A stretch of DNA of 64,000 bases from Promethearchaeia archaeon (GCA_029856155.1 JAHQWL010000093.1:19834-83833), one strand, 5' to 3'. Positions 34,663-62,749 are shown, counted from the first letter of the stretch. Made by a program: numbers and translations. Notes: a model not told the origin generated them from the letters alone.

Positions 34663-35955
34663 TTATTTTATAGTCTTAAAAAATCTTCTAGATTCAGCAT
34701 CTCCTAGCACGTAATGGCTTCCACCACCATGAACCATACAGTATGCGTCAAGAAGTCCCATTTGATTGCAGTATTGCTCTGTGAAACCACGTCCTCCCAT
34801 AGTTCTAAATAAATCAATGGAACTCTGAAATGCCAATTCACAAGTTTGAATTTTTAATCCCATTACCTGAGAAGCCATTATTTTAGAACTAGCTATTTGT
34901 GTTCGACTATCAATCTCCCGAGCGTAATTTATTAAAGCTGAAATGAATAAATTTGTTTGACGCATATTTTCAGCAATTGGAAATCTTATAATCTGATATT
35001 CATGTAATTTATGCTTGAATTGTTCGCGTTGAAGGGCAAAACTATGGGAGAAGAATAGTTTTTTAATGCAATCACCTATAGCTTCTGCACTGATAACTAA
35101 TCTCTCTTCAGTTAATTGATGAAACATAATATCTAGACCATCCCCTTCGAGAAGATTTTCTTTTGGAATTTCAACATCATTAAAGACTAATCGACTTACA
35201 AAAGCATCTCTCATTCCATACATTCTTGCTCTTGAAGATTCAAAATTATTCAAGTGTTGATGTTCTGTATCTACTATTATACCACCTAATCTTCCGCTAT
35301 TTAACCTGCCATAAACAATAATATTATCTGCTAACATGCCATTAACAATAAAAAGTTTTTTTCCCTTTGCAATTACTTTATCTCCTTTATCATCGAGTTT
35401 TAATTCAATTCTTACAATATCACTACCAGCATTAAATTCTGTCATAGCAGAAGCGGCCATCAAACCATATTTTACTACAGGGATAAGGTATTTCTCTCTT
35501 TGAAAATCATTGGCTTTATAATTCACTGGATTGCAATAAAGCGTTCCTCCTGCTAATCTGCCCATTTCAATACTCCAATTCCCACTGACATATCTATCAC
35601 TATTTGAAGACCAAAAACCTCCACATAAGGCTAATGCAATAAGAGCGTTTCGTGTAACATTTCCAACTTCATGTTCTTCCAAATCTATTACAGTGCTATA
35701 GTAGCCTTTTTCAGCCAATTTTTTCATAAAATTAGATACTATTTCACGTTTCTTTTCTTGAATTGGTTCCTCAGCCGAATAATTTAACTCTTCTAAGGTT
35801 TTCAAATGTTTTTCAAGATTTTCTTCTATATATTCAAAAAATTCAGCTAAAAATTCCTTTTCTTTTACATTGAGTATTGGGTTATTTAATAAATCCAATT
35901 CAGGAATATTTCGACTTATTTCTATTTTTGGTAATTCCGGGAGTCTTGTATCCAT
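34663..35955 (-). CDS. Acyl-CoA dehydrogenase (divergent; IVD/LCAD-type catalytic position)
   Basis: AMTEFNAGSD, KLFIVNG, LTEERL, REQF, MGGRGF and C-terminal HGGGS. Confidence 0.85.
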   Translation of the reverse strand: MDTRLPELPKIEISRNIPELDLLNNPILNVKEKEFLAEFFEYIEENLEKHLKTLEELNYSAEEPIQEKKREIVSNFMKKLAEKGYYSTVIDLEEHEVGNVTRNALIALALCGGFWSSNSDRYVSGNWSIEMGRLAGGTLYCNPVNYKANDFQREKYLIPVVKYGLMAASAMTEFNAGSDIVRIELKLDDKGDKVIAKGKKLFIVNGMLADNIIVYGRLNSGRLGGIIVDTEHQHLNNFESSRARMYGMRDAFVSRLVFNDVEIPKENLLEGDGLDIMFHQLTEERLVISAEAIGDCIKKLFFSHSFALQREQFKHKLHEYQIIRFPIAENMRQTNLFISALINYAREIDSRTQIASSKIMASQVMGLKIQTCELAFQSSIDLFRTMGGRGFTEQYCNQMGLLDAYCMVHGGGSHYVLGDAESRRFFKTIK

Positions 35956-36147
35956 AATATATAAGACAATTTTCTTATGATTTTAAATTTTCTTCTCCAT
36001 CAAATAGGATTTTATTCCCATCAATGTAAGTAAGTCTATTAGTAATCTTTTAATCAAAACAAAACATAACAATAAAATATTAAATCTATTTGAAAATAAG
36101 ATTTTTAAAAATTAAATTGATATATAATACCTAAAAGTGAAGATATA

Positions 36148-37569
36148 ATGATTAAATTTAGTGATAAACAATTAAAAATACCTAAATTACTGCGACCAGT
36201 CTACTTAGCTACAGTTGGAATGTCAAAATTCGATCGTGCTTTTCCTGAAACGAGGACGGAAGAATTATGTATTCAAGCTTTAACAGCTGCTTCAGATTTT
36301 GTTAATATGACGCCAGCAGAATTAAAAAGTTTCATTCATACTGCTTATTATGGTCATTTTGCCGATCATTTTGGTGATCAATTACTTGGAGAGGCTGTGA
36401 TTCATGATAGACTCGGACTTGATCCTTTAGGAACTATTGGTATCAAGACGGGGGGCGCAACAGGTGGATCAACAATGTGGGAAGCAATTAAAGCCGTTGC
36501 TTCAGGATATAGTGATTGTGCTTTAGCCTTAGGATGGGAGCGAATGGATGAAGTGCCTACTGATGAAGGTAATCATCTTATATCATGTGCTGCAGATAAA
36601 GATTGGGAAACTCCCCTGGGACATATATATACTGGTTATTATGCTGTTATGGCTCAAAGATATTGGCAAATTTTTGGGAAAGCTGAAGATTCTTTTAGGA
36701 AAACAATGGCAGAAATTGCTGTTAAAAACCGAGGCTATGCCAGAATGAATCCTCATGCCCATGGCCCCATGGAGATCACTGTGGAGGATGTAATTAACTC
36801 TCCTGTTATAGCATATCCTCTTCGCGTTTTAGATTGTTGTTTGATGAGCGTGGGCGCAGCATGTGGAATTGTATGTGATGAAAAAACAGCCTATGAAATA
36901 ACGGACAACCCACTTCGGATCTGGATAGGTGCGGGGAGCCATACACTCAGAGTTGCGGATCGTCGTGATATGAAGATCCCACTTTTACCAAATGAGGAAT
37001 CAGGGCAATATGATGATTTAGGTAAAAAATTTCCAGGAGGAGATAGATATCCCGGATTTAGCAGCTTCTTAGCTGCTCGAATTGCTGCGTATTATGCGTA
37101 TAATATGACGGGTGTTGTAGACCCCAGCGAAGATTTAGATGTTGTAGAGCTTCATGATGCTTTTACAATTAGTGATATTCAAACCTACGAAGATATTGGA
37201 ATTCGACCGTATGGGGAAGGCAGGGATTATATTGAGTCTGGAGATGCGTATGTGATTAATCCAAATACCAATAAACCTGGAAAATTACCTAGCAATCCCT
37301 GTGGTGGCTTAATAGGGTGTATGCATGCAGTAGGAGCTACAGGATTAATGCAAATTGCGGAGATAGCTTACCATATTTGGAACAGATGGGATGAAATCCA
37401 TGAACCTGAGGAAAAGTGGAAAGAATTTAGTCGAGAAAAACCAAAAGATTGGACTAGCTTACAGGTCAAAGGAGCTAAACGAGGGTTAGCCATCAGTCAT
37501 GCGGGCGTCGGCTCTCATGTAACTTGTACAATAATAATGCATCCAAATCATTTAATAAAGGAGGATTAA
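36148..37569 (+). CDS. SCP2-type thiolase-fold protein lacking the catalytic Cys
   Basis: GMSKF, TGGATGG where thiolases have ACASG, ELHDAF, NPCGGL..HAVGATG. Confidence 0.85.
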   Translation: MIKFSDKQLKIPKLLRPVYLATVGMSKFDRAFPETRTEELCIQALTAASDFVNMTPAELKSFIHTAYYGHFADHFGDQLLGEAVIHDRLGLDPLGTIGIKTGGATGGSTMWEAIKAVASGYSDCALALGWERMDEVPTDEGNHLISCAADKDWETPLGHIYTGYYAVMAQRYWQIFGKAEDSFRKTMAEIAVKNRGYARMNPHAHGPMEITVEDVINSPVIAYPLRVLDCCLMSVGAACGIVCDEKTAYEITDNPLRIWIGAGSHTLRVADRRDMKIPLLPNEESGQYDDLGKKFPGGDRYPGFSSFLAARIAAYYAYNMTGVVDPSEDLDVVELHDAFTISDIQTYEDIGIRPYGEGRDYIESGDAYVINPNTNKPGKLPSNPCGGLIGCMHAVGATGLMQIAEIAYHIWNRWDEIHEPEEKWKEFSREKPKDWTSLQVKGAKRGLAISHAGVGSHVTCTIIMHPNHLIKED

Positions 37570-37573
37570 AAAA

Positions 37574-38176
37574 ATGCCAAAAACAGAAGATGAAAAAGGC
37601 TTTGTAGATATAGTAAATGGAAGGTATAAAGTGAGAGGTAAATTTCACATCATTGAAAGAAATCAACCTATCTTTAATAAGGATACAGGAAAATTAGCAG
37701 GTGTCACTAATCCCAGAGATATGACATATATACACTCATATGGAGGAGAAGGTATATTTTTCGAATCTCTTGGCAAAGGAAAACTAATGGCTACAAGATG
37801 TGATAACGATAAATGTGAAACAAAAGGTTCTATTTATGAACCATTTCGAATCTATTGCCCAGATTGCTTAAGAAAAAATACTGTTGTAGATATTACTGAA
37901 AAAGCTCAAAAAACAGCAAAAATACACTCTTTTATTATTACTCATCGTTCTGGAGCTTTTAATACGCTTCCAAAACCAATCAAGTTCATAAACATTGAAT
38001 TTGATGAAGAAGTAGTCACTATTCTTATGAGCGTGTTAGTTGTCGGAGAACCAGAAATAGGAAAAAGAGTTATACCAATCTTTCGTACCAAGGATCCAAC
38101 CTATACCATTATGGATTTAATGTTTGTTGTTGAAGGTACAAAAGCGTCAGAACTTCCAGAGGGCTTTACATTTTAA
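37574..38176 (+). CDS. DUF35 (Zn-ribbon/OB-fold) thiolase partner
   Basis: CDNDKC...YCPDC zinc site and OB-fold C-terminus; starts 4 nt after the thiolase stop. Confidence 0.85.
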   Translation: MPKTEDEKGFVDIVNGRYKVRGKFHIIERNQPIFNKDTGKLAGVTNPRDMTYIHSYGGEGIFFESLGKGKLMATRCDNDKCETKGSIYEPFRIYCPDCLRKNTVVDITEKAQKTAKIHSFIITHRSGAFNTLPKPIKFINIEFDEEVVTILMSVLVVGEPEIGKRVIPIFRTKDPTYTIMDLMFVVEGTKASELPEGFTF

Positions 38177-38277
38177 TCCTATTTTAAAATTATTTTTTTT
38201 ATTCTTATTATTAATAATTTCAAATTTAAAATTAAAAAGATAAAAAAAATTATAAAATAAAATATTGAGGAGTCTAT

Positions 38278-39180
38278 TTACTGCTGATATAAATTAAAAA
38301 TTACTCTGGCCTCATCAGGAGTCGCAGGCTCACGATTTACAATTCTAGCAACTTTAACTGCCCATTCTACCTGTTCCCAACTTCCTTTGGCTAACCTACC
38401 ATCAGGCATGCGAATATTATCTTCTAATCCAACCCTAATATGTCCTCCCATAGGTGCTGCACACATTGCTGCTTGGAATTGTTGTTTTGATACACCACAA
38501 ACACTCCAACTAGCATCTGGTGGTTTTAGATTCATGAAATGAGCTAAATTTTCATAGGAGAATGGAACCCCACCCAAAACTCCGAATACAAATTGAAAGT
38601 GAAGAGGAAAATCAAGAATCCGTTTAGGTTCTTGTTTTGCAAGATGAAGCATGTTGTACATACCACCAAAATCATAAATCTCAATTTCAGGTTTAACTTG
38701 TGCCTTTTTCATAGCTTTAGCAAATTTTTGAATGGTGTCAAAATCATTTGCAAAAATAAATTTAGCACCGAGTCCGACTTGTCCAGTTTTATGGTCACCT
38801 ACAGCAAAATTCATTGAGTTAGAATTTAATGAAGCTATTGGAGGTTTAAATGTCACAACAGGAGTGATCCTGTCTTTAGGAGTTACAATTGTACTAATGG
38901 CCGTACTTAGATTAATTAAAATATCAGGAGCTTTTTCTTTGATATTATCAATTGCAGCTTTGATTATATCTAAATCTGCTACTGGATTACCTTTTTCTGG
39001 ATGTCTAACATGAATATGGACTATTGCTGCTCCTGCTTCATAACATTTTTTTGCTTCATCGCCAAACTCATCAGCAGTATAGGGAACTGCGGGATTCTGG
39101 TTTTTATTTGTTGCGGCACCTGTAAGAGCAGCACTTATTACTAACTTATCTGATAAATCTTCTTCTGAAATTATTATCAC
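38278..39180 (-). CDS. Beta-keto acid cleavage enzyme (DUF849, 3-keto-5-aminohexanoate cleavage family)
   Basis: ALTGA, VPYT, GAAIVHIHVR, KPEIEIYD, GGHIRVGLED, ATPDEAR. Confidence 0.92.
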   Translation of the reverse strand: MIIISEEDLSDKLVISAALTGAATNKNQNPAVPYTADEFGDEAKKCYEAGAAIVHIHVRHPEKGNPVADLDIIKAAIDNIKEKAPDILINLSTAISTIVTPKDRITPVVTFKPPIASLNSNSMNFAVGDHKTGQVGLGAKFIFANDFDTIQKFAKAMKKAQVKPEIEIYDFGGMYNMLHLAKQEPKRILDFPLHFQFVFGVLGGVPFSYENLAHFMNLKPPDASWSVCGVSKQQFQAAMCAAPMGGHIRVGLEDNIRMPDGRLAKGSWEQVEWAVKVARIVNREPATPDEARVIFNLYQQ

Positions 39181-39398
39181 TTTTTAAAATTTCTTTTATA
39201 GTTTTTAAACTTAGATTACTATTGAAAATAGATATCATTCAAATTAATATGTTTTATCTTCATATTAAAATTTATTTAGAAATGTTAAATAAATCCTCAA
39301 TGAAATTCGATAAATATTGTAAAATTTATAAAAGAAAAAATATATTTTTGCTTGTTTAAATCAATAATTACTTGTTTTACAAAAATGAGGAAATAAAT

Positions 39399-40949
39399 AT
39401 GAATCTAAGAGAATTAGTTAAAACTCAAGCAGAAAAGTATAAGGATAAACCTTTTCTATATTGGGATGATATAACAGTCTCCTATGCTCAGTTGGATGAA
39501 TTGACAAATAAGGTAGCGAATTTTTTATACGATTTAGGTATAAGAAAAGGAGATAAAGTAAGTGTTTATTTGCCAAATATGCCTCAATTCGTGTATTTAT
39601 ATTTAGGGATTCCTAAGATAGGAGCAATTACTGGACCTGTAAATGCGTTATTTAAACCTAGAGAAGTTAAATTCGTAGTTGGTCATTCAGAAGCTAAAGC
39701 CATAGTAACTATTCCACAATTCTTGGAAATAATCAACCAAATAAAAGGAGAGCTTCCCAATTTAAAACATATAATCGTAATTGGCGAGCCTGTAGAAGGA
39801 ACCTTAAATTTTAACGAATTAATGGAAAAAACATCATCAGATGCACCTCCTGAAGTGGAAATAGATGAAAAAGAAGATCCTGCAGCAATACTTTATACGT
39901 CAGGTACCACTGGTTTTCCTAAAGGTGTATTACAGACCCATTATAATATTAGACGAAATGCTGAAATGATAAAAGATTTCATGGACGCTAAGGAACATTA
40001 TCGATTTATGCTAATTTTACCATTATTCCATGTTAATGCCCAAATAGTTACTATTATGGGTCCACTTACAATAGGAGCGAGTTGTATTTTAACTCGTGGA
40101 TTTTCAGCTAAAACTCATTGGGAAACTGTTGCAAAATACAAAGCATCTACTTTTAGTTGTGTTCCAACAGTACTTTCTGTTTTACTCAAGATGCCACATG
40201 AAAATCTTGATCTATCATCATTAGAATTTGTCATATGTGGAGCGGCTCCTTTACCTGTAGAGGTGTTTAAAGCATTTGAAGAGAAATTTGATTGCAAAGT
40301 AATTGAGGGTTATGGTCTCACAGAAGGTACTTGTGCTTCTTCGGTTAATCCTTTACCAACAGAAACAGAAGACCGACGGAAAATAGGTAGCATCGGTTTA
40401 GCTTTACCAGGTAATGAAATGAAAATTGTGGATAGTCAAGGCAATGATCTTCCACCGAATACAAAAGGTGAAATTGTTATTAGAGGCGATAACATTATGA
40501 AAGAATATTTCAAAAACCCTGAGGCAAACGCTGAAACTCTTAAAGGCGATTGGTTGTATACAGGAGATATTGGCCACATGGATGAGGATGGCTTTTTCTA
40601 CATAACTGATCGCAAAAAAGACATGATAATCCGAGGAGGAGAAAATATATATCCACGTGAAATAGAGGAGGTACTATATTCACATCCAGCAGTTTCTCTG
40701 GGAACAGTTATAGGTGTACGGGATGAAATCTATGGAGAACTTCCTAAAGCATTTATTGTATTGAAAGAAGGTCAATCTGCTACAGAGGAAGAGATTATTG
40801 AATATTGTAAAAAACATCTAGCTGACTTTAAAGTTCCAAAATATGTGGAATTTCGGGACAGTCTGCCTCAAACTCCTACAGGAAAAATAATGAAACAACC
40901 CCTTCGTGAAGAGGAGGAAGCTAAAACTGGTAGAGTCTTTGCTACTTAA
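39399..40949 (+). CDS. Long-chain fatty-acid--CoA ligase
   Basis: YTSGTTGFPKG, EGYGLTE, YTGD, DRKKDMIIRGGEN, GKI. ATG at 39399 follows GAGGA. Confidence 0.92.
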   Translation: MNLRELVKTQAEKYKDKPFLYWDDITVSYAQLDELTNKVANFLYDLGIRKGDKVSVYLPNMPQFVYLYLGIPKIGAITGPVNALFKPREVKFVVGHSEAKAIVTIPQFLEIINQIKGELPNLKHIIVIGEPVEGTLNFNELMEKTSSDAPPEVEIDEKEDPAAILYTSGTTGFPKGVLQTHYNIRRNAEMIKDFMDAKEHYRFMLILPLFHVNAQIVTIMGPLTIGASCILTRGFSAKTHWETVAKYKASTFSCVPTVLSVLLKMPHENLDLSSLEFVICGAAPLPVEVFKAFEEKFDCKVIEGYGLTEGTCASSVNPLPTETEDRRKIGSIGLALPGNEMKIVDSQGNDLPPNTKGEIVIRGDNIMKEYFKNPEANAETLKGDWLYTGDIGHMDEDGFFYITDRKKDMIIRGGENIYPREIEEVLYSHPAVSLGTVIGVRDEIYGELPKAFIVLKEGQSATEEEIIEYCKKHLADFKVPKYVEFRDSLPQTPTGKIMKQPLREEEEAKTGRVFAT

Positions 40950-41108: not shown

Positions 41109-42251
41109 ATGGATAAAGTAGCAATAGTTGGATGTTCTCAAACAAAATATGAAGCAGAAAAAATTGATTTAACAATTTCAGAACTGGTTTTTGAAGTTGT
41201 TAAGAAGCTACATAACGAATTGGGAATTACAAATGATGATGTTGGTTGTGTAATTACCGGTTCTAATGATTTTAATGATGGAAGAACAATAGCAAATATG
41301 GCGATTCAAGATGCGGTTGGGTCAGTTAGAAAAGCAGAATCTCGAGTTTCTGGAGATGGAGCATTTGCTTATGTGTATGGGGCTATGAGGGTTCTTTCTG
41401 GAGAATATGATACTGTTTTGGTTGTTTCACACTCTAAATGTTCAGAAGGTGATCAATATCTTATAAATAATTCAATATTTGATCCATTTTATCAACGACA
41501 TTTAGGTTTAGATCAAATATCTTCTGCTGGTTTAATGGCAAATATGTACATGAGTAAATATGGCATTAATGAAGAACAAGCTGCAGAAGTAGTGGTAAAA
41601 AATCGAAAAAATGCTATTAAAAATCCCTATGCACACCTGCAAAATGAAGTTTCAATTGATGAAGTTTTGAATTCGCCTATGATGGCATATCCCTTAAAAG
41701 AATTAGATTTTCCTCCATATAGTGATGGAGCAGTTGCAATGCTTCTCACTAATGAAGAAAATGCTAGGAAGTTTACTGATACGCCTGTATGGTTAAAAGG
41801 ATATGCTAGTTGTACTGATGCTTATTATCTTGGACATCGAAATATGACTGATTTAATAGGTTTGGAGCTTGCTGCAAAAGAAGCTTTTAAAATGGCTGAA
41901 ATTAATAATCCAATAAAAGAACTAGATGTAGCAGAAGTTTTTGAAGCTTTTTCTGTGCATGAGCTTATGATTTATGAAGCTTTAGGATTCTGTGGAAAAG
42001 GAGAGGGTGGAAAATTTATTGAAAATGGAGAAACGCAAATAGATGGATCAATTCCAGTAAATCCATCCGGAGGAGTATTATCTAGCAATGTTGCAATGGC
42101 TAATGGTTTAATTCGAGTATCAGAGATTGCTTTACAATTAATGGATAAAGCAGAAAGACGGCAAATATCTGATGCAAAAACAGGATTAGCTTATGGAATG
42201 AATGGGATATGCTCACAAGGGAATTGTGTATTAATATTCGGAGGTGAATAA
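41109..42251 (+). CDS. Thiolase-fold protein, Ltp4-like (no catalytic Cys)
   Basis: GSNDFNDGR and ESRVSGDGAFA resemble the Ltp4 pattern; DGAVA, NPSGG. Confidence 0.8.
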   Translation: MDKVAIVGCSQTKYEAEKIDLTISELVFEVVKKLHNELGITNDDVGCVITGSNDFNDGRTIANMAIQDAVGSVRKAESRVSGDGAFAYVYGAMRVLSGEYDTVLVVSHSKCSEGDQYLINNSIFDPFYQRHLGLDQISSAGLMANMYMSKYGINEEQAAEVVVKNRKNAIKNPYAHLQNEVSIDEVLNSPMMAYPLKELDFPPYSDGAVAMLLTNEENARKFTDTPVWLKGYASCTDAYYLGHRNMTDLIGLELAAKEAFKMAEINNPIKELDVAEVFEAFSVHELMIYEALGFCGKGEGGKFIENGETQIDGSIPVNPSGGVLSSNVAMANGLIRVSEIALQLMDKAERRQISDAKTGLAYGMNGICSQGNCVLIFGGE

Positions 42252-42254
42252 AAG

Positions 42255-43427
42255 ATGCCAAAAAATAATGTAGCAATTGTAGGAATAGGGCAAACTAAAT
42301 TTAGAAGTAAAAGAAGAGATGTGAATATTCCTGAAATGATCTATGAAGCTGTTAAAATGGCGCTTGATGATGCTCAAATGGATTATAAAGATATTGATGC
42401 AATTCTCATAGGCAATATGGACCATTTTGAGGGCATAAATTTCTCTGAGATGTGGTGTGGGATTGATGCCGCGCCAGGATATTTAAAGCCTGTGGTAAAA
42501 ATTGCTACAGGTGGAACAACAGGTTCGTCTTTAGGTATTTGTGGATATTATAATATTGCTTCTGGGATATATAAAAATGTATTAATTGTAGGATGGGAAA
42601 AGCTTAATGAGGGCGGTGCTACTACAGGAATAATTACTGCTTTTGATCCAGTATGGGAGCGTCCTTCATTAGCAGGTGCTTTAGGACCCCTCGCTTTAAT
42701 GGCTAATATTTACGCTGCTAAATATGGAATTACATCAGAACAAGCAGCAAAAGTAACTGTTAAAAATAGGAGGAATGCTGCCAATAATCCATTTGCCCAC
42801 ATACAAATGCCTAATATTACTATAGATGATGTGATGAATTCTCAAATGATATCTTATCCATTAAGATTACATGATTGTTGCCCTCAAAGTGAAGGCGCTT
42901 GTGCTGTTATCTATGCTAATGAAGAAGAAACAAAAAAGATTACAGATAATCCTGCTTGGTTTAAAGGAGTTTCAACAGCTCATTACTACACATTTGGTTG
43001 TGATGATTTGATGTTTGATTTACCCACAGCTACTATAGCGTCCAAGAAGATATATAAAAAGGTAGGGATAAAAAATCCAATAAAAGATCTTGACGTTGCT
43101 GAGATATATGAGCCTACATCATGGTCAGAGCTAAGTTGGACTGAAGCCTTGGGGTTTTGTGGCAGAGGAGAAGGAGGTAAGTTATTGGATGAGGGTATAA
43201 CTCAAATGGATGGAGAATTACCGGTTAATCCCTCTGGAGGTGTGTTAAGTACTAATCCTATTGGGGCAACAGCATTAGTGCGATTTGCAGAAGCAGCAAT
43301 TCAAGTTATGGGGAGAGGAGGAAAGCGACAAATCTCTGATGTCGAAACAGCAATGGGAATGGGATTTGGTGGGTCTCTTTGGACTGAATTAGCAATATTA
43401 GGAAGAAATCCAAATCCGTTGAGGTGA
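42255..43427 (+). CDS. Thiolase-fold protein, Ltp3-like (no catalytic Cys)
   Basis: GQTKFRSKRRDV, HFEG, TGGTTGSS, GWEK, AEIYEP, NPSGGVLSTNPIGA. Confidence 0.8.
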   Translation: MPKNNVAIVGIGQTKFRSKRRDVNIPEMIYEAVKMALDDAQMDYKDIDAILIGNMDHFEGINFSEMWCGIDAAPGYLKPVVKIATGGTTGSSLGICGYYNIASGIYKNVLIVGWEKLNEGGATTGIITAFDPVWERPSLAGALGPLALMANIYAAKYGITSEQAAKVTVKNRRNAANNPFAHIQMPNITIDDVMNSQMISYPLRLHDCCPQSEGACAVIYANEEETKKITDNPAWFKGVSTAHYYTFGCDDLMFDLPTATIASKKIYKKVGIKNPIKDLDVAEIYEPTSWSELSWTEALGFCGRGEGGKLLDEGITQMDGELPVNPSGGVLSTNPIGATALVRFAEAAIQVMGRGGKRQISDVETAMGMGFGGSLWTELAILGRNPNPLR

Positions 43428-43432
43428 TAGAA

Positions 43433-43909
43433 ATGGGAAAAAAAGAAAAGGAATTTCAGATTAAATGGAAAACAGATTTACCTTATAGGTATTCCATAGG
43501 AAAGTTAGCTGTCAAATATTTTGAAGAACTTAAAAATAAGAAGATTATGGGTTCTAAGTGCCCAAAATGTGGTAAAAGATTTATGCCTCCCAGAGCTGTA
43601 TGCGCTGATTGTCTTGTAGAAATGACTTTGGAAGACATGATAGAACTTTCTCCAAAAGGTACTTTAGAGGGATTTACAGTGGTCAATTATCCGTTTGTTG
43701 ACCCTAATACAGGAGGTATGCGTCCATTCCCTTATGGATATGGAATTTTCAAATTAGATGGAGCTGATACGTATATGATGCATTTTGTTAATGAAACTGA
43801 CCACACTAAATTTAAAATTGGACAAAGAGTTGAAGCAGTGTTCAAAGAGAAAACAGAAGGAGATATTTATGATATCCCATATTTCAAACTTATAAGGGAG
43901 GAGGAATAA
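43433..43909 (+). CDS. DUF35 (Zn-ribbon/OB-fold) protein
   Basis: CPKC...PPR..CADC plus OB fold; ATG at 43433 follows GAGGTGA. Confidence 0.9.
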   Translation: MGKKEKEFQIKWKTDLPYRYSIGKLAVKYFEELKNKKIMGSKCPKCGKRFMPPRAVCADCLVEMTLEDMIELSPKGTLEGFTVVNYPFVDPNTGGMRPFPYGYGIFKLDGADTYMMHFVNETDHTKFKIGQRVEAVFKEKTEGDIYDIPYFKLIREEE

Positions 43910-54828: not shown

Positions 54829-54967
54829 AAGAAATAATTCTATCAGATAACATTTAAAATTATAGATTTTAGGTATTAAAATTACATTTTTTAACAAATA
54901 AGAAAAAGAGAATAGTAATTTCTCTTTGGAATGAAGAGTTTACTATAGATTTTATTAAATTATTTGT

Positions 54968-55783
54968 TTAACGTCCAATAAATATAGGATCTCTTTTTTC
55001 TTTAATAGATTTCATAGATTCACTAAAATCTTTTGAAGTAAAAGCCTTTCTCAATGCTCTATTCTCCAAATCTAATGTTCTCTCTAATATATCTTTAAAA
55101 TAAGAATGCATTGTTTTTTTCATTAGCTTTAATGATAAAGATGCACCTTTAGGAGGGATTAACCTTAAAGCTTGTTCTCTAGCATAAGGTATTAGCTCGT
55201 CTGGTGGGAGGATTTTGTTGACGAGTCCTAGTTCATATGCTCTCTGTGCCGTAATTTCTTCACCAAAATAACAAATTTCTTTTGCTTTTTGAAAACCGAC
55301 TAATAATGGTAAAAGAAATGAACATGCAAATTCAGGTACTATCGCTCTTTTGGAGAAAAAAAATCCCAGCCAAGCATCTTCTGCCATAAAAATCAAATCC
55401 GCACAAGCTAAAGGCATAGTTATCCCGCCTCCTATAGCCATACCATTAATTGCAGCTATGACTGGCTTATTAAAATCCCAAAATTTCATACACACCTTTT
55501 TTTGTGCGATATCCATGATATCAATTTCTGGATACTTTCTCATTTCTTCCATCATTTCTGGTTTAAAATAACCACCAGATGTAAATGCATTTCCCTTGGG
55601 ATCTCCAGTTATTATTAGTACTTTAGCATTTCTATCTTTTTCCATATCTTCTAAAACAGTATATATTTCTAAGAAAGTGATATAAGTCACAGCATTCCTT
55701 CCTTCAGGTCTTGAAATTGTGGCAGTACATATACCATTATCTTCCTTCTCGTAAATAACATCTTCAAAATCTTCTATTCGCAT
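54968..55783 (-). CDS. Crotonase-family protein, probably enoyl-CoA isomerase type
   Basis: KPVIAAINGMAIGGG. The two hydratase Glu positions are absent (GITM, FFFS), and VPEFACS resembles the delta3,delta2-isomerase catalytic Glu position. Confidence 0.85.
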   Translation of the reverse strand: MRIEDFEDVIYEKEDNGICTATISRPEGRNAVTYITFLEIYTVLEDMEKDRNAKVLIITGDPKGNAFTSGGYFKPEMMEEMRKYPEIDIMDIAQKKVCMKFWDFNKPVIAAINGMAIGGGITMPLACADLIFMAEDAWLGFFFSKRAIVPEFACSFLLPLLVGFQKAKEICYFGEEITAQRAYELGLVNKILPPDELIPYAREQALRLIPPKGASLSLKLMKKTMHSYFKDILERTLDLENRALRKAFTSKDFSESMKSIKEKRDPIFIGR

Positions 55784-55899: not shown

Positions 55900-57609
55900 T
55901 TATTTTTTTTCTTCTTCTCGTAGTGCCTTCTTTAAAACTTTTCCAACCATCGTAAGTGGTAGTTCTTCTCGGAAATTCCAGATCTTGGGAATCTCATATT
56001 TTGAGAGATTTTCTTCTGCGAATTTTTTAATACTTGCTTTAACTTCATCAGTGGATTCAACTCCTTCTTTAAGTTGAATAACAGCTTTCACAATTTCTGC
56101 TCCAGGTCTATCAGGATTAGGAATTCCTATTATAGCGAGAATTTGAATATCAGGATGTTTAGTCATCACTTCTTCAACATGAACACTATACACCTTGAAA
56201 CCACTTACTATAAGCATATCTTTTGTACGATCTACAATCTTTAAATAGCCATCTTCATCGAAAACGCCAACATCGCCCGTGTGAACATATCCATCTTTAT
56301 CAAATGTTATAACTGTTGCTTCAGGTTTATTATGATATTGTTTAACAACTGAGGGCCCTTTTATCAAGATTTCACCTGGTTGCCCAATCTCTTGTATTTC
56401 TGCTCCAGATTCAGTATCTATTAGTTTAATGTCTGTATCTGGCCATGGCAGTCCAACAGTTCCTATCTTTTTCTTACCATACATTGGATTAGCGGTTATT
56501 ACAACCGCAGTTTCAGTCATTCCATAAACCTCGACAAATTTATTCTCAGTGTGGAATTGTTTTTCAAATTCTCTTATAGCTTCTGGTGGAAAGGGTGCAG
56601 CACCGCTTACATATAAAGTAATATTATCTAATATTTCTGGTGGGATTTTTTTCGACATTGGATTACTCTGAATCATTAAAAACAGAGTCGGTACATTTCC
56701 AAAACTTGTGGGTTTTTTATCAATGATTTCTTTTATAATATGGTCAGTATCTCTAGGATTTGCTATTAATATTTGTGTTCCTCCTAGATAAACTAAAAAA
56801 AGTCCAATAAGGAATCCTGCAACATGAAAAAAAGGAAAAGCTGAAAGAAGTAGCTCTTTACCTTTCTCTCTATTGAGCCAGACATCAAATTGATGAATAT
56901 TTGCCATCAAATTTGAGTGAAGGATTTCTACTCCTTTAGGTAGTCCTGTTGTGCCACCTGTATATTGTATTAAAGCCAAATCTTTTTTAGGATCAATTTG
57001 TACTTTTTTTAAATCAATTTCAGTGTTCAATGCATCAAGAAAGGGAACCACAGTTTTTCCTGGCCATGGAATAATTTTTCCCTTAGGGATCTTTTTTATT
57101 AATTTACCCATGAAAACTTTAAAACCCCCGAAACCCATAAATTCTGAAATATTTGTTGGAACTATTACTTTTAAGTCATTTAAGCGATCATAAATCTTGG
57201 AAAAGACTTTTTCATGAAGAATATCCATAGTAACTAAAAATTTAGCACCTGAATCCTTCATTTGATATACCATTTCTTCTGGACTCAGTAATGGTGATAA
57301 TCCTGTAATAGTACCTCCAGCTATATATGTGGAGTAAACAGAAAACAAGTATTGAGGAGAATTAGGAAGACAAATTGCCAGTACATCCCCCTTATTTAAA
57401 CCATTTCTCTGCAAGAAGGTAGCAAATCTCTGGCAATATTCTAATATCTCTTTGAAAAGAAATGTGCGGTCCATGAAATGAAAACCTATATTGTCGCCAT
57501 ATTTGGTCATGCATTGGGTTAGCATTATTCCAATATCTTCTGTTGGATATGTTAAAGACGCTGGAACATGTTTATCATAAGATTTTAACCAAAATTTTTC
57601 TTTACTCAT
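55900..57609 (-). CDS. Long-chain fatty-acid--CoA ligase (FadD-like)
   Basis: QYTGGTTGLPKG, YGMTE, HTGD, DRTKDMLIVSGFKVY, VGKVL. Confidence 0.92.
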   Translation of the reverse strand: MSKEKFWLKSYDKHVPASLTYPTEDIGIMLTQCMTKYGDNIGFHFMDRTFLFKEILEYCQRFATFLQRNGLNKGDVLAICLPNSPQYLFSVYSTYIAGGTITGLSPLLSPEEMVYQMKDSGAKFLVTMDILHEKVFSKIYDRLNDLKVIVPTNISEFMGFGGFKVFMGKLIKKIPKGKIIPWPGKTVVPFLDALNTEIDLKKVQIDPKKDLALIQYTGGTTGLPKGVEILHSNLMANIHQFDVWLNREKGKELLLSAFPFFHVAGFLIGLFLVYLGGTQILIANPRDTDHIIKEIIDKKPTSFGNVPTLFLMIQSNPMSKKIPPEILDNITLYVSGAAPFPPEAIREFEKQFHTENKFVEVYGMTETAVVITANPMYGKKKIGTVGLPWPDTDIKLIDTESGAEIQEIGQPGEILIKGPSVVKQYHNKPEATVITFDKDGYVHTGDVGVFDEDGYLKIVDRTKDMLIVSGFKVYSVHVEEVMTKHPDIQILAIIGIPNPDRPGAEIVKAVIQLKEGVESTDEVKASIKKFAEENLSKYEIPKIWNFREELPLTMVGKVLKKALREEEKK

Positions 57610-57865: not shown

Positions 57866-59146
57866 TTAGAGTAATTTAAATATTTGTCTTAAGGCTAAAC
57901 TCATTATATATTGTTGAATTTGTCTTGTGCCGCCTCCAATTTCCTGTATTCTTGTTATACCGAGTAAATCTTGCATTAATGTATTATCACATACACCTGC
58001 TCCGCCCATGAGATTCGCGCATTCGTAAGCTGCTTTTTGACTTAATTTAGCACTTATTGATTTTAGTTGAGCTGCTGTAGCCATTAATGCTAAACTAAAT
58101 TCTTTAGGAAGGGCTCCATATTGTTTCACTTTTTTATCAACCATTTGGCATACGTTTAACGCAGATAAAGTAAGATTCATTGTCTCAGCCCATAAATCTG
58201 CTAAAGGAAATCCTACCCCTTGATATTTTAAAATTTCTCTGTCAAATTGTTTTCTCAAGTTAGCATATATTACGGCATGAGTTATAGCATTCCAAGCTTC
58301 AGCTGCGTTTAAAATAACAATTCCTAATCGTTCCAAATTTAATCCTTCAAAAAGATGTTCTCTCCCTTGACCTGGTTTGCCCAATACATATTCTGGAGGA
58401 ATTCTTAAATTAGTGAAGGTCTCTTTACCAATATAAATACGGGGAGTCCATGGAATATTAATTCTCTCCACTTTCCAACCATTCCAGCTTGTATCGACTA
58501 AAAATTGTCCCATTGTATTTCCGCTATTTTGTTCAGATACAGCATAAACTACTGCCCAATCTGCCTTAGGTCCGTTAGTTTGGTAAATTTTTACTCCATT
58601 TAAGATAAAACTTCCATCTTCTTGTTGGTCAGAAGTAGTTAGCATATGAACTGCATCAGAACCTCTTTCAGGTTCAGTGATACAAATACAACCATTTTTC
58701 TGCCCGGTGACTAATTCTTTTAATACCTTTAATCGAATCTCTATGTCCTCATGATGCACTAATAGAGGATTGATTGCTAACACGTTAGCTCCCATCCCCA
58801 TTGCAAGTTGTGGGTCAAAAAAATCGGTAGCCAATATTCTCATAAATTCAGCTGTAAAACCATAGGGTTCATAATTCAAATCAAGAATTTCGAAATTATT
58901 TAATCGTGTAACTAAACCCTCTTTGCCGATTTCAGGAATCCATTCATAAAAATCTTCATTATGAGAAATATTATTCCTCTTTTCAAAGCCTATAAAGAAC
59001 TTTTGAGCTTTCTTAAGAAAATCTAAATGTTCTTTTTCCAAAAAAGACATTAAGTTGTAATTCAAGAATTTGTATCGATTCTTTAAAGAAAGCTTTTCAA
59101 GTATCTCATCATTAATGCATTGAACTTCTCCTTTTTTTATAGCCAT
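57866..59146 (-). CDS. Acyl-CoA dehydrogenase (IVD-like active-site pattern)
   Basis: CITEPERGSD, KIYQTNG, GLNLERL, RKQF, MGGAG, EIGGGTRQIQ. Confidence 0.9.
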   Translation of the reverse strand: MAIKKGEVQCINDEILEKLSLKNRYKFLNYNLMSFLEKEHLDFLKKAQKFFIGFEKRNNISHNEDFYEWIPEIGKEGLVTRLNNFEILDLNYEPYGFTAEFMRILATDFFDPQLAMGMGANVLAINPLLVHHEDIEIRLKVLKELVTGQKNGCICITEPERGSDAVHMLTTSDQQEDGSFILNGVKIYQTNGPKADWAVVYAVSEQNSGNTMGQFLVDTSWNGWKVERINIPWTPRIYIGKETFTNLRIPPEYVLGKPGQGREHLFEGLNLERLGIVILNAAEAWNAITHAVIYANLRKQFDREILKYQGVGFPLADLWAETMNLTLSALNVCQMVDKKVKQYGALPKEFSLALMATAAQLKSISAKLSQKAAYECANLMGGAGVCDNTLMQDLLGITRIQEIGGGTRQIQQYIMSLALRQIFKLL

Positions 59147-59328: not shown

Positions 59329-59790
59329 ATGACTGAAAAAATTGTTGTTGCAAATAAAGGACTAATAAAAGCTGATTTTGCTTTTTGGGTTGGACGTTAT
59401 ATGGATAAATTATTTGATGCTTTTGAAAATAGGAAAATAGTTGGAAATAAATGCCCTAAATGTGGAGATGTTTTTGTTCCACCGAGAAAAATATGTGGAA
59501 AATGCAATGTTACGATCCCTTTTGATCAGAACTGGGTAAATTTACCAAATACTGGTATATTAAAGAATTATACTATAACTTATTATAAAATCAACGATAG
59601 AGCTAGTCGAAAGGTTAAAAAACCTCAAATTATTGGAATGGTGCAAATTGATGGAAGCAATACATCAATAATTTACCGTTTATTAGATATGGAACCAGAA
59701 GAAGTGAAAGTGGGAATGAAACTTAAAATTATGTGGGAAGAAAAACCTAAGGGAGACCCTTCAGATATTAAGGGTTTCGTTAAATTTTGA
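59329..59790 (+). CDS. DUF35 (Zn-ribbon/OB-fold) protein
   Basis: CPKC...PPR..CGKC plus OB fold. Confidence 0.9.
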   Translation: MTEKIVVANKGLIKADFAFWVGRYMDKLFDAFENRKIVGNKCPKCGDVFVPPRKICGKCNVTIPFDQNWVNLPNTGILKNYTITYYKINDRASRKVKKPQIIGMVQIDGSNTSIIYRLLDMEPEEVKVGMKLKIMWEEKPKGDPSDIKGFVKF

Positions 59791-59805
59791 GAGGTGATAA
59801 ATTAG

Positions 59806-60948
59806 GTGCAAAAAGTAGGTATTGTAGGATATTATCAGGTAAAATTATATTCAGATGCAAATTATGGGCGATATGAAATGATCTTTGAAGCTGTGAGAGG
59901 AGCTCTTGATAAGGCAGGGTTAAAGAAAAAAGATATAACCACAGTAATATCTTGTACAAATGATTATTATGATGGAAGAACTATTTCTAATTCTTTTGCT
60001 GTAGAACCTGGTGGAGCATACCTAGCAGATGAGTCGAAAGTAGAGATGGATGGAGCACACGCATTGTTATATGGTATGATGAGAATTTTATCTGGAAATC
60101 ATAAATTAGCAGTAATATGGGCGGGAAGTATGGCATCATGTTTTCCATATCATTCAGCTAGATTGTTTGAGACTGATCCAACATGGGAAAGACCTACTGC
60201 TTATGTTAATGATATTACAGCTTTAGGGTTTCAAATGAGAGCCTATATGAAGAAATATGGAGTTAGTGCTGAGGAGATTGCCGAAATCGCTGTCAAGAAT
60301 AGGAAAAATGCCTCAAAAAATTCTTTAGCATTAAAAGAAGCCCAAAATCCAAATTTAACTGTTAAGGATATTTTAGATTCTGAAATTTATGCTGATCCCG
60401 TAAGAGAATTAATGGTTGCGCAACCTTGTGATGGTGTTGCAGCATTACTATTAGCTCCTGAGAAACAAGCCTTAAAAATCACGGATAAACCCGTGTGGAT
60501 TACTGGAGTTGGATATAATCAAGATGCATATTATCTTGGTGATAGAAATTTAGCAGAATCCAAATCAATGGAATTAGCTAGCAAAATGGCATTTAAAACT
60601 GCCGGAATTAAAGATCCATTAAAAGAAATTGACGTTGCTGAAATATTTGAAGCTGCTGCTCATGAGGAATTAATCTTAAAAGAAGCTCTTGGATTTAGTG
60701 ATAAAGGAAAAGGAGCAAGTTTAAACTCTGAAATTACTGGAGAGCTTCCAATTAATCCTTCAGGTGGAGCAATTGGTGGTAATCCCCCTTGTGGAACGGG
60801 GCTAATTAGAGTTATTGAAGCTACGAAACAAATTACAGGTGAAGCAAAAGGGTATCAAGTAGAAGGAGTTAAAAAAGCAATTGCAACTGGGCAGATTGGT
60901 ATGTGTGCTCAAAATAATATAATTTACGTATTAGAAGGAGGGAATTAA
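59806..60948 (+). CDS. Thiolase-fold protein, Ltp4-like (no catalytic Cys)
   Basis: NDYYDGR, ESKVEMDGAHAL, DGVAA, NPSGG; GTG start after GAGGTGA. Confidence 0.8.
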   Translation: MQKVGIVGYYQVKLYSDANYGRYEMIFEAVRGALDKAGLKKKDITTVISCTNDYYDGRTISNSFAVEPGGAYLADESKVEMDGAHALLYGMMRILSGNHKLAVIWAGSMASCFPYHSARLFETDPTWERPTAYVNDITALGFQMRAYMKKYGVSAEEIAEIAVKNRKNASKNSLALKEAQNPNLTVKDILDSEIYADPVRELMVAQPCDGVAALLLAPEKQALKITDKPVWITGVGYNQDAYYLGDRNLAESKSMELASKMAFKTAGIKDPLKEIDVAEIFEAAAHEELILKEALGFSDKGKGASLNSEITGELPINPSGGAIGGNPPCGTGLIRVIEATKQITGEAKGYQVEGVKKAIATGQIGMCAQNNIIYVLEGGN

Positions 60949-60950
60949 AA

Positions 60951-62198
60951 ATGGGAAGACAAGTTTGTATTGCAAGCGCTGGATTCAGTGAGCATGCTTC
61001 AAAAAGATCTGACGTGAGCATGCCAGAATTAGTGAGTGAAGCTATTGAAGATTGTTTGAATAAAGTTCCAAGTGTTAGTATTAATGATATTGATGCTTTT
61101 GTTAATGGTAATATGCCTGCTTTTGAGGGCGCCAATATCCCAGAACTGTGGATGACCGATTGGATGGGAGCTCGTAACAAACCATTAATGAGAATTACTA
61201 CTGGTGGAACGACGGGAGGATCAGTTGCTATTGGTGGATATTATACTGTAGCCGCGGAATTGCCCAGTATTGATACAGTTCTAGCTGTAGGGTTTGAGCA
61301 ACAATCCCAAGGGGACACTAGCACAGGTTTAGCATCTGTAGCATATGGAGAAATATCAGTTCTAAACACTTTAGGTATTACCTATGACCAATTAACTCAA
61401 TTATTATCTGCTGGGGCTGCAATAGGTGTTGCTTCTTATCAAGCGACAAACTATATGCGTAGAAGTAAGATTACGGAAGAAGATCTTGCAAGAGTTGTGG
61501 TACAAAATAGACATAATGCTGCTAAAACATGGTGGGCTCACTTAAAGATGCCAGATTTAACAATAGAAGATGTGTTAGAAACGCCATATATTTCATATCC
61601 TTTAAGATATGGTATGGTATGCCCGGCTTCCGATGGAGCGTGTGCTATGTTATTTACCACTGAACAAAAAGCTAAAGATTTATGTGATATACCAGTTTAC
61701 GTTAATGGAGTTGGTAGTGTAGCTAATGAAACAGGAGTACTTGGATATAATGGTAGTGGTGCTGGTCAATTAGATACTTCTGAACAATTAGGTGCAATGA
61801 AAACAGCAGAGCTAGCATTTGGTCAAGCGGGTATTTCTTTTCCAAGAAAAGAAATCGACTATGCTGAGGTCTATTCTCCTTTTCCAAATCAAGAACTTAT
61901 GTGGATTGAAAGACTAGGTTTATTCGAGGAAAATACTGCTTCAGAAATGTATGAAACTGGTGTTACAGCTCTAAATGGAGAATTACCAATAAATTGTTCT
62001 GGTGGGGTTAATTCGACTAACGCTATTGGAGCATCAGCTATGGAAAGACCCGCGGTTGCAGCACTTCAAATAATGGGTAAAGCAAGTAATCAAGTACCAA
62101 AAACAGTACATGCAGCAATTGGACATGGATGGGGCGGCGTTATAAATTTAATTACAATGATGGTGATGTCAGATAAGCCAACAAGGAAAATTAATTAA
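60951..62198 (+). CDS. Thiolase-fold protein, Ltp3-like (no catalytic Cys)
   Basis: KRSDVSMPELV, FEGANIPELWM, KPLMRITTGGTTGGS, AEVYSPF, STNAIGAS. Confidence 0.8.
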   Translation: MGRQVCIASAGFSEHASKRSDVSMPELVSEAIEDCLNKVPSVSINDIDAFVNGNMPAFEGANIPELWMTDWMGARNKPLMRITTGGTTGGSVAIGGYYTVAAELPSIDTVLAVGFEQQSQGDTSTGLASVAYGEISVLNTLGITYDQLTQLLSAGAAIGVASYQATNYMRRSKITEEDLARVVVQNRHNAAKTWWAHLKMPDLTIEDVLETPYISYPLRYGMVCPASDGACAMLFTTEQKAKDLCDIPVYVNGVGSVANETGVLGYNGSGAGQLDTSEQLGAMKTAELAFGQAGISFPRKEIDYAEVYSPFPNQELMWIERLGLFEENTASEMYETGVTALNGELPINCSGGVNSTNAIGASAMERPAVAALQIMGKASNQVPKTVHAAIGHGWGGVINLITMMVMSDKPTRKIN

Positions 62199-62218
62199 AA
62201 TCTTGAGGTAATAAAAAA

Positions 62219-62749
62219 ATGTCAAAAAGAACACAAAGAAAATCGATGGAATATATTAAAAAAGATTATGTTAGAACTCGAACCACGCCTGGTAGCTGGT
62301 ACCTTCCCAGTTATAAATATAAATTCAATATTACTCATTTTAAACCTTTTCTAGATAAATTAAAGGAAAGAAAGTTAGTAGGTCTGCAATGTTCGAGTTG
62401 TAATCGTGTTTTCTTTCCCCCTAAAATTATCTGTGGAAAATGTATGGTAAAACCCGATCGATGGGTAGATTTACGTGAAACAGGGAGGGTTGCTACATTT
62501 ACTATAACATATCTAAAGGATCCAGAAACTGGGGACGTAATAGAAAGACCCATTGTATTAGTACAACAAGATGGATCAGATACTACTTTCACTGCTGAAT
62601 TAAGCCCTGATGTTGATTATAAAGACACTTATATAGGAATGCCAGTCAAAGTCCATTGGGCGGAAGAATGTACGGGGGGATTAATGGATATTCTTTATTA
62701 TGATTTAGTCGAAGATGATTCAAAAGATTTAGAATTACGTAAAGACTAA
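62219..62749 (+). CDS. DUF35 (Zn-ribbon/OB-fold) protein
   Basis: CSSC...PPK..CGKC plus OB fold. Confidence 0.9.
   Translation: MSKRTQRKSMEYIKKDYVRTRTTPGSWYLPSYKYKFNITHFKPFLDKLKERKLVGLQCSSCNRVFFPPKIICGKCMVKPDRWVDLRETGRVATFTITYLKDPETGDVIERPIVLVQQDGSDTTFTAELSPDVDYKDTYIGMPVKVHWAEECTGGLMDILYYDLVEDDSKDLELRKD

Follow-up and report, generated by a model that had tools for sequence, protein, structure and literature searches.

Gene content of the island

We analysed a window of 64,000 nt from a Promethearchaeia archaeon (GCA_029856155.1, JAHQWL010000093.1:19834-83833). An island of genes for acyl-CoA catabolism occupies positions 34663-62749 (Table 1). It codes for five proteins of thiolase fold, called T1 to T5, all of which have lost the nucleophilic Cys and which are accompanied by genes for DUF35 or DUF35-like proteins. 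A first-pass annotation of the same DNA had proposed that the island cleaves acyl-CoAs by retro-aldol chemistry instead of classical beta-oxidation. Our analyses indicate that four of the five proteins form two alpha/beta modules, T2-T3 and T4-T5, which are candidate C-C lyases, and that T1 belongs to another family.

The gene content was established by listing the open reading frames (ORFs) and scanning them with Pfam, which recovered every gene of the first-pass list. That list did not include the genes for a beta-keto acid cleavage enzyme (BKACE), a CMD-family protein, and a CrtI-like flavoprotein with its FNR/2Fe-2S reductase. The latter two genes are 3 nt apart, and no oxygenase partner for them is present in the island. 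The reported absence of a 3-hydroxyacyl-CoA dehydrogenase (HADH) also held. None of the island's 24 ORFs (25 if the adjoining gene for a GntG-like aldolase is counted) has a 3HCDH or an adh_short (SDR) domain, and as intergenic gaps are at most 257 nt, no gene is hidden in the island.

Table 1. Genes of the island, with positions counted from the first nucleotide of the window
Gene product	Position	Strand	Evidence or motifs
ACAD1, divergent acyl-CoA dehydrogenase (ACAD)	34663-35955	-	Pfam Acyl-CoA_dh_M and _1
T1, Cys-less His-His thiolase-fold protein	36148-37569	+	TGGATGG aa 101-107, HDAF 336-339, His393
P0006, divergent DUF35-like Zn-ribbon/OB-fold partner of T1	37574-38176	+	
BKACE	38278-39180	-	Pfam E 6e-90
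Acyl-CoA ligase 1 (AMP-ligase)	39372-40949	+	Pfam
T2, alpha-type Cys-less subunit	41109-42251	+	VSGDG aa 80-84, FEAF 278-281, Asn327
T3, beta-type Cys-less subunit	42255-43427	+	TGGTTG aa 85-90, Tyr285-Glu286, Asn334
DUF35 protein	43424-43909	+	Pfam zf-ChsH2 and OB_ChsH2_C; alignment
DUF35 protein	43909-44373	+	Pfam zf-ChsH2 and OB_ChsH2_C; alignment
CMD-family protein	44466-45074	-	Pfam
FadH-type OYE/Pyr_redox_2 enoyl or dienoyl reductase	45275-47287	-	Pfam, PDB match
Crotonase 1	47522-48346	+	Pfam
AOR	48355-50220	-	Pfam
Fe-ADH	50256-51455	-	Pfam
SCP2	51571-51981	-	Pfam
FNR-type reductase with C-terminal 2Fe-2S domain	52072-53271	-	
CrtI-like flavoprotein	53275-54897	-	
Crotonase 2	54968-55783	-	
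Acyl-CoA ligase 2 (AMP-ligase)	55900-57609	-	
ACAD2, divergent acyl-CoA dehydrogenase	57866-59146	-	
DUF35 protein, second module	59329-59790	+	Passes Pfam
T4, alpha-type, second module	59806-60948	+	VEMDG, FEAA
T5, beta-type, second module	60951-62198	+	TGGTTG, Tyr308, Asn357
DUF35 protein, second module	62219-62749	+	Passes Pfam

Catalytic residues of the thiolase-fold proteins

The nucleophile position was set by HMMER alignment to the Cys-bearing thiolases 6ESQ, 6HSJ, 7YVY and 7PXP, and the genome's own Cys-type paralogues agreed with this register in a genome-wide alignment. Each motif quoted in the first-pass annotation is found once per protein, at the nucleophile loop. In the HMMER alignments Gly stands opposite the catalytic Cys in T1, T3 and T5 and, depending on the alignment, Ser or Val in T2. 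The VEMDG motif of T4 lies in the same loop as VSGDG of T2, which places Glu or Val opposite the Cys in the genome-wide alignment. The equivalents of the HDCF motif in T1 to T5 are HDAF, FEAF, YEPT, FEAA and YSPF, the acid/base Cys being missing from all five, and the histidine of the GH(P) motif is kept in T1 only, with Asn at its place in T2-T5. Thus, the nucleophilic Cys and the pair of HDCF Cys and GH His that mark a catalytic thiolase are found in none of the five, and the claim that all lack the nucleophile stands.

An alternative Cys in the active site had been named in advance as a finding that would speak against aldolase chemistry. We looked for one by conservation among homologues, and no conserved one was found. 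Cys209 of T3 is invariant, but it corresponds to the pantetheine-tunnel Cys of the CxS(D/E)G motif, which is also present in true SCP2 thiolases (6HSJ). Cys368, in the C-terminal loop of the alpha type, is kept in just 17 of 37 sequences, and neither Cys385 nor Cys391 of T1 is invariant among 121 close homologues. Because they have neither the nucleophilic Cys nor a conserved substitute, the five proteins cannot be ordinary thiolases. Judging from these alignments, thiolysis through an acyl-Cys intermediate is not possible for any of them.

Two Cys-less aldolases provide a reference for the remaining residues. In both TcLtp2 (Y294DHF) and CtSal (Y302DCY) the Tyr is the catalytic base, whose mutation abolishes activity, and the general acids are Tyr344 in Ltp2 and Cys304 in Sal (PMC12329534). 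A Tyr is present at the first position of the YDHF motif in T3 (Tyr285) and T5 (Tyr308), with His in T1 and Phe in T2 and T4. The match coordinates on 6OK1 in a short-region PDB search are consistent with Tyr285 of T3 being equivalent to Tyr294 of Ltp2. The second catalytic Tyr of Ltp2 (Tyr344), 50 residues downstream, is replaced by Asn in T2-T5 and by His in T1. The Tyr302/Cys304 dyad of Sal is not found either, since T3 and T5 have the Tyr but a Pro at the third position of the motif.

Alpha, beta and T1-type proteins

A search of 1.8 billion cluster representatives, followed by classification of the hits and construction of a tree, divided the nearest sequence space into two halves. One of them contains thiolases with Cys/His/His residues, interspersed with Cys-less lineages that keep both His residues; it includes T1, an unlinked paralogue encoded on contig C102 and ST0096 (4YZO). 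The other consists of the alpha and beta clades, which are sister clades (SH-aLRT 98 and 96) separate from the Cys-type thiolases. They are nearly all Cys-less, with one representative, P0249, carrying a Cys in the loop. Thus, the five proteins that the first-pass annotation had treated as one group do share the loss of the Cys, but they are of three distinct kinds (alpha, beta and the His-His type of T1) and are not equivalent.

The alpha proteins, T2 and T4, have a shortened nucleophile loop (xxDGxxA). The position of the HDCF His varies across 37 sequences (F, S, Y, C or H), and no acid/base residue is conserved; T2 and T4 are probably partner subunits. The beta proteins, T3 and T5, have TGGxxG, with Tyr in place of the HDCF His and Asn in place of the GH His. 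This signature (Gly-Gly loop, Tyr and Asn) is invariant in 109/109 homologues of T3 and also in a 25-sequence representative alignment that goes down to 29 % identity. T3 is 83-97 % identical across Asgard genera and metagenome-assembled genomes (MAGs) and 55-59 % identical to its bacterial homologues, which implies strong purifying selection. On sequence grounds, the beta subunit T3 is the likely catalytic one, and its active site, with Tyr and Asn and neither Cys nor His, appears as a third variant beside those of Ltp2 and Sal.

These features bear on the explanation that the Cys-less proteins carry out other chemistry, such as decarboxylation of malonyl- or beta-carboxy-acyl-CoAs, thioester hydrolysis or isomerization, or that they are dead scaffolds together with DUF35. 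That the Tyr, the Asn and the Gly-Gly loop stay invariant even among very divergent beta proteins points instead to a conserved active site, both characterized thiolase-fold enzymes with the Tyr and no nucleophilic Cys are aldolases, and the usual neighbours of the cassette are hydratases and ligases. We therefore regard this explanation as unlikely, but it keeps some weight, as no general acid is identifiable in the beta subunits and the alpha subunits have no conserved catalytic residue. In addition, DUF35 proteins are known to mediate assembly, for example of the archaeal thiolase/HMGCS/DUF35 and KT/ACR/HCD complexes, and the adjacency of BKACE may be a sign of chemistry on beta-keto acids. 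With the same Tyr, TbSLP showed only trace malonyl-CoA decarboxylase activity (PMC12329534).

The model of T3 (pLDDT 87.4) superposes on thiolases with a TM-score of ~0.87, on Ltp2 with 0.84 and on Sal with 0.82; since it fits both groups equally well, the fold does not separate thiolase from aldolase. Among NCBIfam models, T3 and T5 match NF006180 best, and T2 and T4 give full-length matches to NF005924, a 'lipid-transfer protein' model. We take these to be the Ltp3 and Ltp4 models, respectively. A recent duplication of the two modules was considered and rejected, as T2/T4 and T3/T5 lie in different subclades and are 37-39 % identical.

Judged by sequence, T1 and its DUF35-like partner are an enzyme separate from the Ltp-like modules and are not to be pooled with them. 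T1 keeps both thiolase (oxyanion-hole) histidines and no Cys, and it is a near-member of NCBIfam PRK06365, with 665 bits over the full length and an equivalog cut-off of 695. At 75-89 % identity, the unit recurs in Asgard archaea, Thermoplasmatota and several bacterial groups, among them Marinimicrobia, Planctomycetes, Krumholzibacteria, Cytophagales and Gammaproteobacteria. A DUF35-like gene always directly follows the T1-like genes of Marinimicrobia and Thermoplasmatota, and the neighbours of the unit are an ACAD gene with a CoA transferase gene, or a crotonase gene. The cassette is hyper-conserved and laterally spread, though it occurs in only 25/61 genomes of the archaeon's class.

The first-pass annotation had counted five DUF35 genes. 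Four of them (starting at 43424, 43909, 59329 and 62219) pass Pfam with a zf-ChsH2 Zn ribbon and an OB_ChsH2_C domain. The fifth, the partner of T1 (37574-38176), had no Pfam match at E<=0.001. Its product has a Zn ribbon, scores 20.1 bits (E 0.0024) with PF01796, whose cut-off is 27.1, and has a weak hhalign match to the other four (probability 63 %). Its homologues are named Zn-ribbon OB-fold or DUF35 proteins in NCBI and UniRef. It is counted here on these weaker lines, as a probable, divergent member below the Pfam cut-off.

Distribution of the island and its cassettes

We sampled 61 genomes from the archaeon's class. T3 has an orthologue in ~24 of them and T1 in 25, and both are patchy even inside a genus, so that the island is an accessory one. 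A synteny check across relatives, which the first-pass annotation had called for, showed that the core gene order is kept in five genera of the archaeon's family. In G049, of the same genus, the order is conserved from ACAD1 to the terminal gene for a pyridoxal phosphate (PLP)-dependent aldolase, with ligase 1 and the CMD-family gene not detected; the CMD-family protein is not kept in relatives. In genera g3, g4 and g6 the core comprises ACAD1, T1 and its partner, BKACE, T2-T3-DUF35-DUF35 and a crotonase, and further FNR with the CrtI-like protein, crotonase 2, ligase 2 and the T4/T5 module. ACAD1 is syntenic with T1 in relatives, and the FNR/CrtI-like pair is retained in the island in genera g1, g3, g4 and g6. 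One or sometimes two BKACE genes immediately adjoin the T2/T3-type cassette in all Asgard relatives that we examined (e.g. L033:2494-5030, L129, L134), and on a Freyarchaeial contig genes for OYE, two BKACEs and a CoA transferase accompany a T2/T3-type cassette. No HADH is encoded inside the island in five relatives, the nearest being 36-57 kb away.

In G032, a third alpha/beta-like module is found where T1 would be. This more divergent pair of thiolase-fold genes, together with two DUF35 genes, comes after ACAD1 (L031:626-4069); of its two members, the second shows the beta signature (YDPF, Asn), and the pair branches outside the main alpha/beta clades. The contig (JBHLJY010000006.1) is labelled Candidatus Hodarchaeota by NCBI, and GTDB places G032 in the archaeon's own family. 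As L031 and G032:C6 are the same sequence, the public phylum or class labels of these MAGs are inconsistent, and L031 is not evidence from another class. Three T3 orthologues (G042:C2:124016-125203, G029:C105:25523-26704 and G041:C7:116707-117891) have two in-frame stops each, TGA and TAG or two TAA; pseudogenes, assembly errors or small insertions are possible.

We next considered 80 named bacterial loci of one beta-type relative, from Planctomycetaceae, Desulfobacterota (including Desulfosudis oleivorans and Smithella), Halieaceae and Actinomycetota. Genes were counted within 6 kb in the 57 loci with full flanks. One alpha and one beta gene are found in 43 of the 57, two DUF35 genes in 39, a CoA ligase in 38 and a crotonase in 30. 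ACAD genes are present in 13 loci, HADH in three and AOR in none (nor in any of the 80). In bacterial loci of another beta subclade, BKACE is rare (3/57). The contig search with a single beta-type query returned no locus of Mycobacterium or Rhodococcus. The cassette is thus widespread in bacteria. An aldolase would call for a ligase and a hydratase nearby but for no dehydrogenase, and this context, as first described for the island, is borne out by the absence of HADH from the island and from those of five relatives and by its rarity in the bacterial loci.

In one bacterial locus (L035:4312-13090), the cassette is followed by 3HCDH, crotonase, HADH, ACAD, a fused B12 acyl-CoA mutase with MeaB, HMGCS-like/DUF35 and thiolase genes. 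A B12 mutase flanks the island in G032 also, which together with L035 points to rearrangement of a branched carbon skeleton. In another locus (L032), a flavoprotein of the CrtI-like protein's Pfam families adjoins the cassette.

Beta-oxidation genes elsewhere in the genome

A genome-wide search revealed five 3HCDH-type HADH genes outside the island, together with five Cys-type thiolases (two classical and three of SCP2 or archaeal type), one of which has MaoC and crotonase neighbours. The five relatives checked have 5-9 HADH genes each. Thus, the island comes in addition to classical beta-oxidation, not in its place, and the words 'instead of classical beta-oxidation' apply to the island alone, not to the organism. 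We considered whether an HADH lies just outside the island and rejected it, as the nearest one is ~36 kb upstream, between genes for a leucine-rich repeat (LRR) protein and a presenilin homologue, and not in an operon. It is a stand-alone gene coding for 402 residues (G000:C94:17840-19900), just upstream of the window. A gene of the acetone-carboxylase type, which could connect a methyl ketone with BKACE, was also sought; the genome has one hydantoinase-B gene, unlinked to the island, which says nothing either way.

These data also bear on the idea that the island is a self-sufficient iterative cycle devoid of HADH and thiolase, which would replace beta-oxidation for lipids generally, with AOR reducing ferredoxin and a ligase re-activating the acid. 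Such a cycle is not new, as it is established in beta- and gamma-Proteobacteria. There, Sal1, a Cys-less SCP-x-type protein, releases acetyl-CoA and a free aldehyde from the C5 side chains of bile acids, Sad converts the aldehyde to the acid and StdA2 then re-activates it at the expense of ATP, although thiolysis is chemically possible and would save energy (PMC8399759). Every enzyme needed is likewise in the archaeal island, which has no HADH, and both Fe-ADH and AOR are within the island in genera g1 and g6. However, the HADH and thiolase genes of this genome and the HADH genes of its relatives argue against a replacement, and re-ligation would cost ATP to AMP per round (a cost also discussed in PMC8399759), which would be dear for a fermenting or syntrophic anaerobe. 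Furthermore, linkage of an orthologous AOR does not reach beyond the genus; in g6 a 35 % paralogue lies with an ADH, the islands of G015 and G033 have no AOR, and the bacterial loci have none. The role proposed at first for AOR in closing a cycle therefore has weak support, and we give the self-sufficient cycle a slim chance.

Comparison with known systems

Our literature searches found no description of such a Cys-less thiolase island in Asgard archaea. One of the closest arrangements is that of Ltp3-Ltp4 with an adjacent protein of tandem DUF35 domains in the sterol catabolism of Rhodococcus rhodochrous and M. tuberculosis, a proposed heteromeric aldol-lyase for C24-branched sterols that would act where a branch blocks beta-oxidation, encoded near EchA19 and FadD19 (PMC6678751, PMC6593523). 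As in the island, two adjacent Cys-less genes of different type go with two DUF35 domains, here in the orders T2-T3-D-D and D-T4-T5-D (D, DUF35 gene), and a crotonase and an acyl-CoA ligase are nearby (echA19 and fadD19 there). In contrast, the island proteins score far under the family cut-offs, their DUF35 domains are encoded by separate genes, and the host is an anaerobic archaeon without the KstR, Cyp or Mce context.

TcLtp2-ChsH2(DUF35) (6OK1), a retro-aldolase for the C3 side chain of steroids, has in common with the island a Cys-less SCP2-thiolase fold, a DUF35 partner and a base Tyr at the HDCF-His position. However, Ltp2 has YDHF and Tyr344, whereas T3 has YEPT and T5 has YSPF, with Asn at the second site. 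Ltp2 is a homodimer whose DUF35 partner is fused to a MaoC hydratase, unlike the alpha/beta pairs, free DUF35 proteins and crotonase-type hydratases of the island. Its similarity to T3 is low (E 1e-27, compared with 1e-50 for ST0096). The CtSal-Shy(DUF35)/Sad/StdA2 system (9MYR) follows the logic proposed here, with ligase, ACAD, hydratase, Cys-less aldolase, aldehyde oxidation and ATP-dependent re-ligation, and Sal has a Gly in place of the nucleophilic Cys and a Tyr base. It differs in the acid Cys304 of Sal, at which T3 and T5 have Pro, in the NAD-dependent aldehyde dehydrogenase Sad, where the island has a tungsten-type AOR, and in the steroid substrate of Sal.

The best PDB match of T2 (5e-49), T3 (1e-50) and T5 (5e-31) is ST0096 of Sulfolobus tokodaii (4YZO), an archaeal Cys-less protein (TSGSGGS). 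Unlike the alpha and beta proteins, it keeps both histidines (HDMA, GHP) and thus resembles T1 and the C102 paralogue. The archaeal systems of Cys-type thiolase and DUF35 have the same side-by-side genes and TM-scores of 0.88-0.89, but they use a catalytic Cys85 for Claisen condensation, of which the island proteins are incapable. Similarly, the C-acyltransferases PhlABC and MucABC have two different thiolase-superfamily subunits bridged by DUF35, with a Tyr at the same position in PhlC. However, PhlC needs Cys88, which the island proteins do not have, and the substrates are phenolic and CoA-independent. The present system differs from the known pathways in its archaeal host, in its alpha/beta pairs of the Ltp4/Ltp3 type, which go with free DUF35 proteins and with hydratases of the crotonase type, and in the constant company of BKACE and of the CrtI-like/FNR pair. 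A ferredoxin-linked AOR in place of Sad is a possible further difference.

Proposed function

From gene content, the loss of Cys, conservation, synteny and neighbourhood counts, we infer an aldolase activity, subunit roles, an order of steps and a type of substrate. The two CoA ligases would activate a lipid-type acid, and the divergent ACADs and the FadH-type reductase would set up a 2-enoyl-CoA, which the two crotonases would hydrate to the 3-hydroxyacyl-CoA. The alpha/beta pairs, each with two DUF35 proteins, would then split the C2-C3 bond by a retro-aldol reaction, yielding acetyl- or propionyl-CoA and a carbonyl compound, with the invariant Tyr of the beta subunit (Tyr285 of T3, Tyr308 of T5) as the base and the alpha subunit as a non-catalytic partner. 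Such a lyase would be used where oxidation to the 3-oxoacyl-CoA or its thiolysis is blocked, and the HADH and thiolases encoded elsewhere would handle ordinary rounds. Fe-ADH and AOR may supply alcohols or aldehydes or oxidize an aldehyde product, and a probable task of the CrtI-like flavoprotein and its FNR partner is to desaturate or isomerize the hydrocarbon chain.

We put at about even the chance that the island is an accessory acyl-CoA catabolic cluster, present in part of one Asgard family, whose alpha/beta modules are retro-aldol (C-C) lyases with a catalytic beta subunit, a reading that draws on sequence and on analogy with Ltp2 and Sal. The island most likely serves steps on branched or hindered acyl-CoAs beside conventional beta-oxidation. 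Of the retro-aldolase proposal as first made for all five proteins, the part that survives is that T3 and T5 share the base Tyr of Ltp2 and Sal; T2 and T4 have no conserved catalytic residue, and T1 is of another family.

Several points weigh against the lyase reading. No member of the alpha/beta clades has been assayed, and the aldolase role of Ltp3/Ltp4 comes from genetics alone. The Tyr is all that T3 and T5 share with Ltp2 and Sal, the acid Tyr344 being replaced by Asn and Cys304 by Pro, and no acid could be identified in their place. The fold of T3 is as near to true thiolases as to aldolases. The NCBIfam scores are well below the cut-offs, with 377 for T3 and 350 for T5 against 514 for NF006180, and 206 for T2 and 183 for T4 against 419 for NF005924. 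The hints about the substrate are weak, as the CrtI-like, EchA19-like and BaiCD-like matches are all under cut-offs. Finally, the cassette directly adjoins HADH genes and an acyl-CoA mutase in bacterial locus L035, and is thus not inherently an HADH-free device.

The accessory enzymes were compared with known proteins. The top PDB match of the FadH-type protein is the 2,4-dienoyl-CoA reductase of E. coli (1PS9, E 4.5e-104), followed by 2-naphthoyl-CoA reductase. That of ACAD1 is isovaleryl-CoA dehydrogenase, with an E-value of only 3e-27; the matches of both ACADs, at ~100 bits, are too weak for typing a branched-chain signature either way. EchA19 is among the top matches of both crotonases, below the cut-off, and the Kce-like NCBIfam matches of BKACE also fall under their cut-offs.

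As to the substrate, no direct evidence was obtained for the phytol- or phytanyl-derived acid suggested in the first-pass annotation. A broader form of that suggestion is that the island supports an O2-independent breakdown, in Asgard archaea, of methyl-branched isoprenoid chains (phytol- or phytanyl-type, archaeal lipid tails) or of sterol-type side chains, which we find improbable. In that case the CrtI-like flavoprotein and FNR/2Fe-2S reductase would prepare the chain, the three Cys-less modules would remove one branch block after another by retro-aldol cleavage, BKACE would turn a beta-keto acid back into an acyl-CoA without ATP, and AOR would pass electrons from aldehydes to ferredoxin. 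If the modules are indeed aldol-lyases for branched lipids, Asgard archaea of sediments would take part in turning over isoprenoid- or sterol-type lipids under anaerobic conditions, a process for which few enzymes are known.

Annotation of thiolase-fold and DUF35 proteins in Asgard archaea

Public sources name each of the five proteins acetyl-CoA acetyltransferase or thiolase, although none of them can be a thiolase. This touches the lipid-divide debate, in which the abundance of KT/DUF35 pairs in Asgard archaea is read as a capacity for fatty-acid synthesis. Schmerling et al. (10.1101/2024.07.05.601840) reported in a preprint a mean of 3.8 such pairs per Asgard genome, interpreted as potential fatty-acid synthesis capacity, and do not discuss catalytic cysteines; theirs was the one paper found that brings Asgard archaea, DUF35 and thiolase together. 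Five of the eight DUF35-family genes of the present genome adjoin Cys-less thiolase-fold proteins, which are incapable of Claisen condensation, and counts of KT/DUF35 pairs in Asgard archaea thus need a check of the catalytic residues.

The same preprint, and the reversibility of aldol reactions, would favour a biosynthetic role of the alpha/beta pairs. We consider this very improbable, because the Claisen condensation of thiolases requires an acyl-Cys and none of the five proteins has the Cys. Moreover, the neighbours are catabolic (ligases, ACADs, AOR and BKACE), and the island holds no ketoacyl reductase, MaoC dehydratase or enoyl reductase of the Sulfolobus acidocaldarius type. The alpha/beta clade is large and its active site is unlike those of both solved aldolases, so that a single biochemical study would annotate thousands of genes.

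Downstream margin of the island

The contig ends at 64000, and the island may therefore extend beyond it. A gene coding for a GntG-like PLP-dependent (threonine-type) aldolase (62808-63872; 375 bits with NF041359, cut-off 230) closes the island and is found in the same place in G049, G054 and G015.

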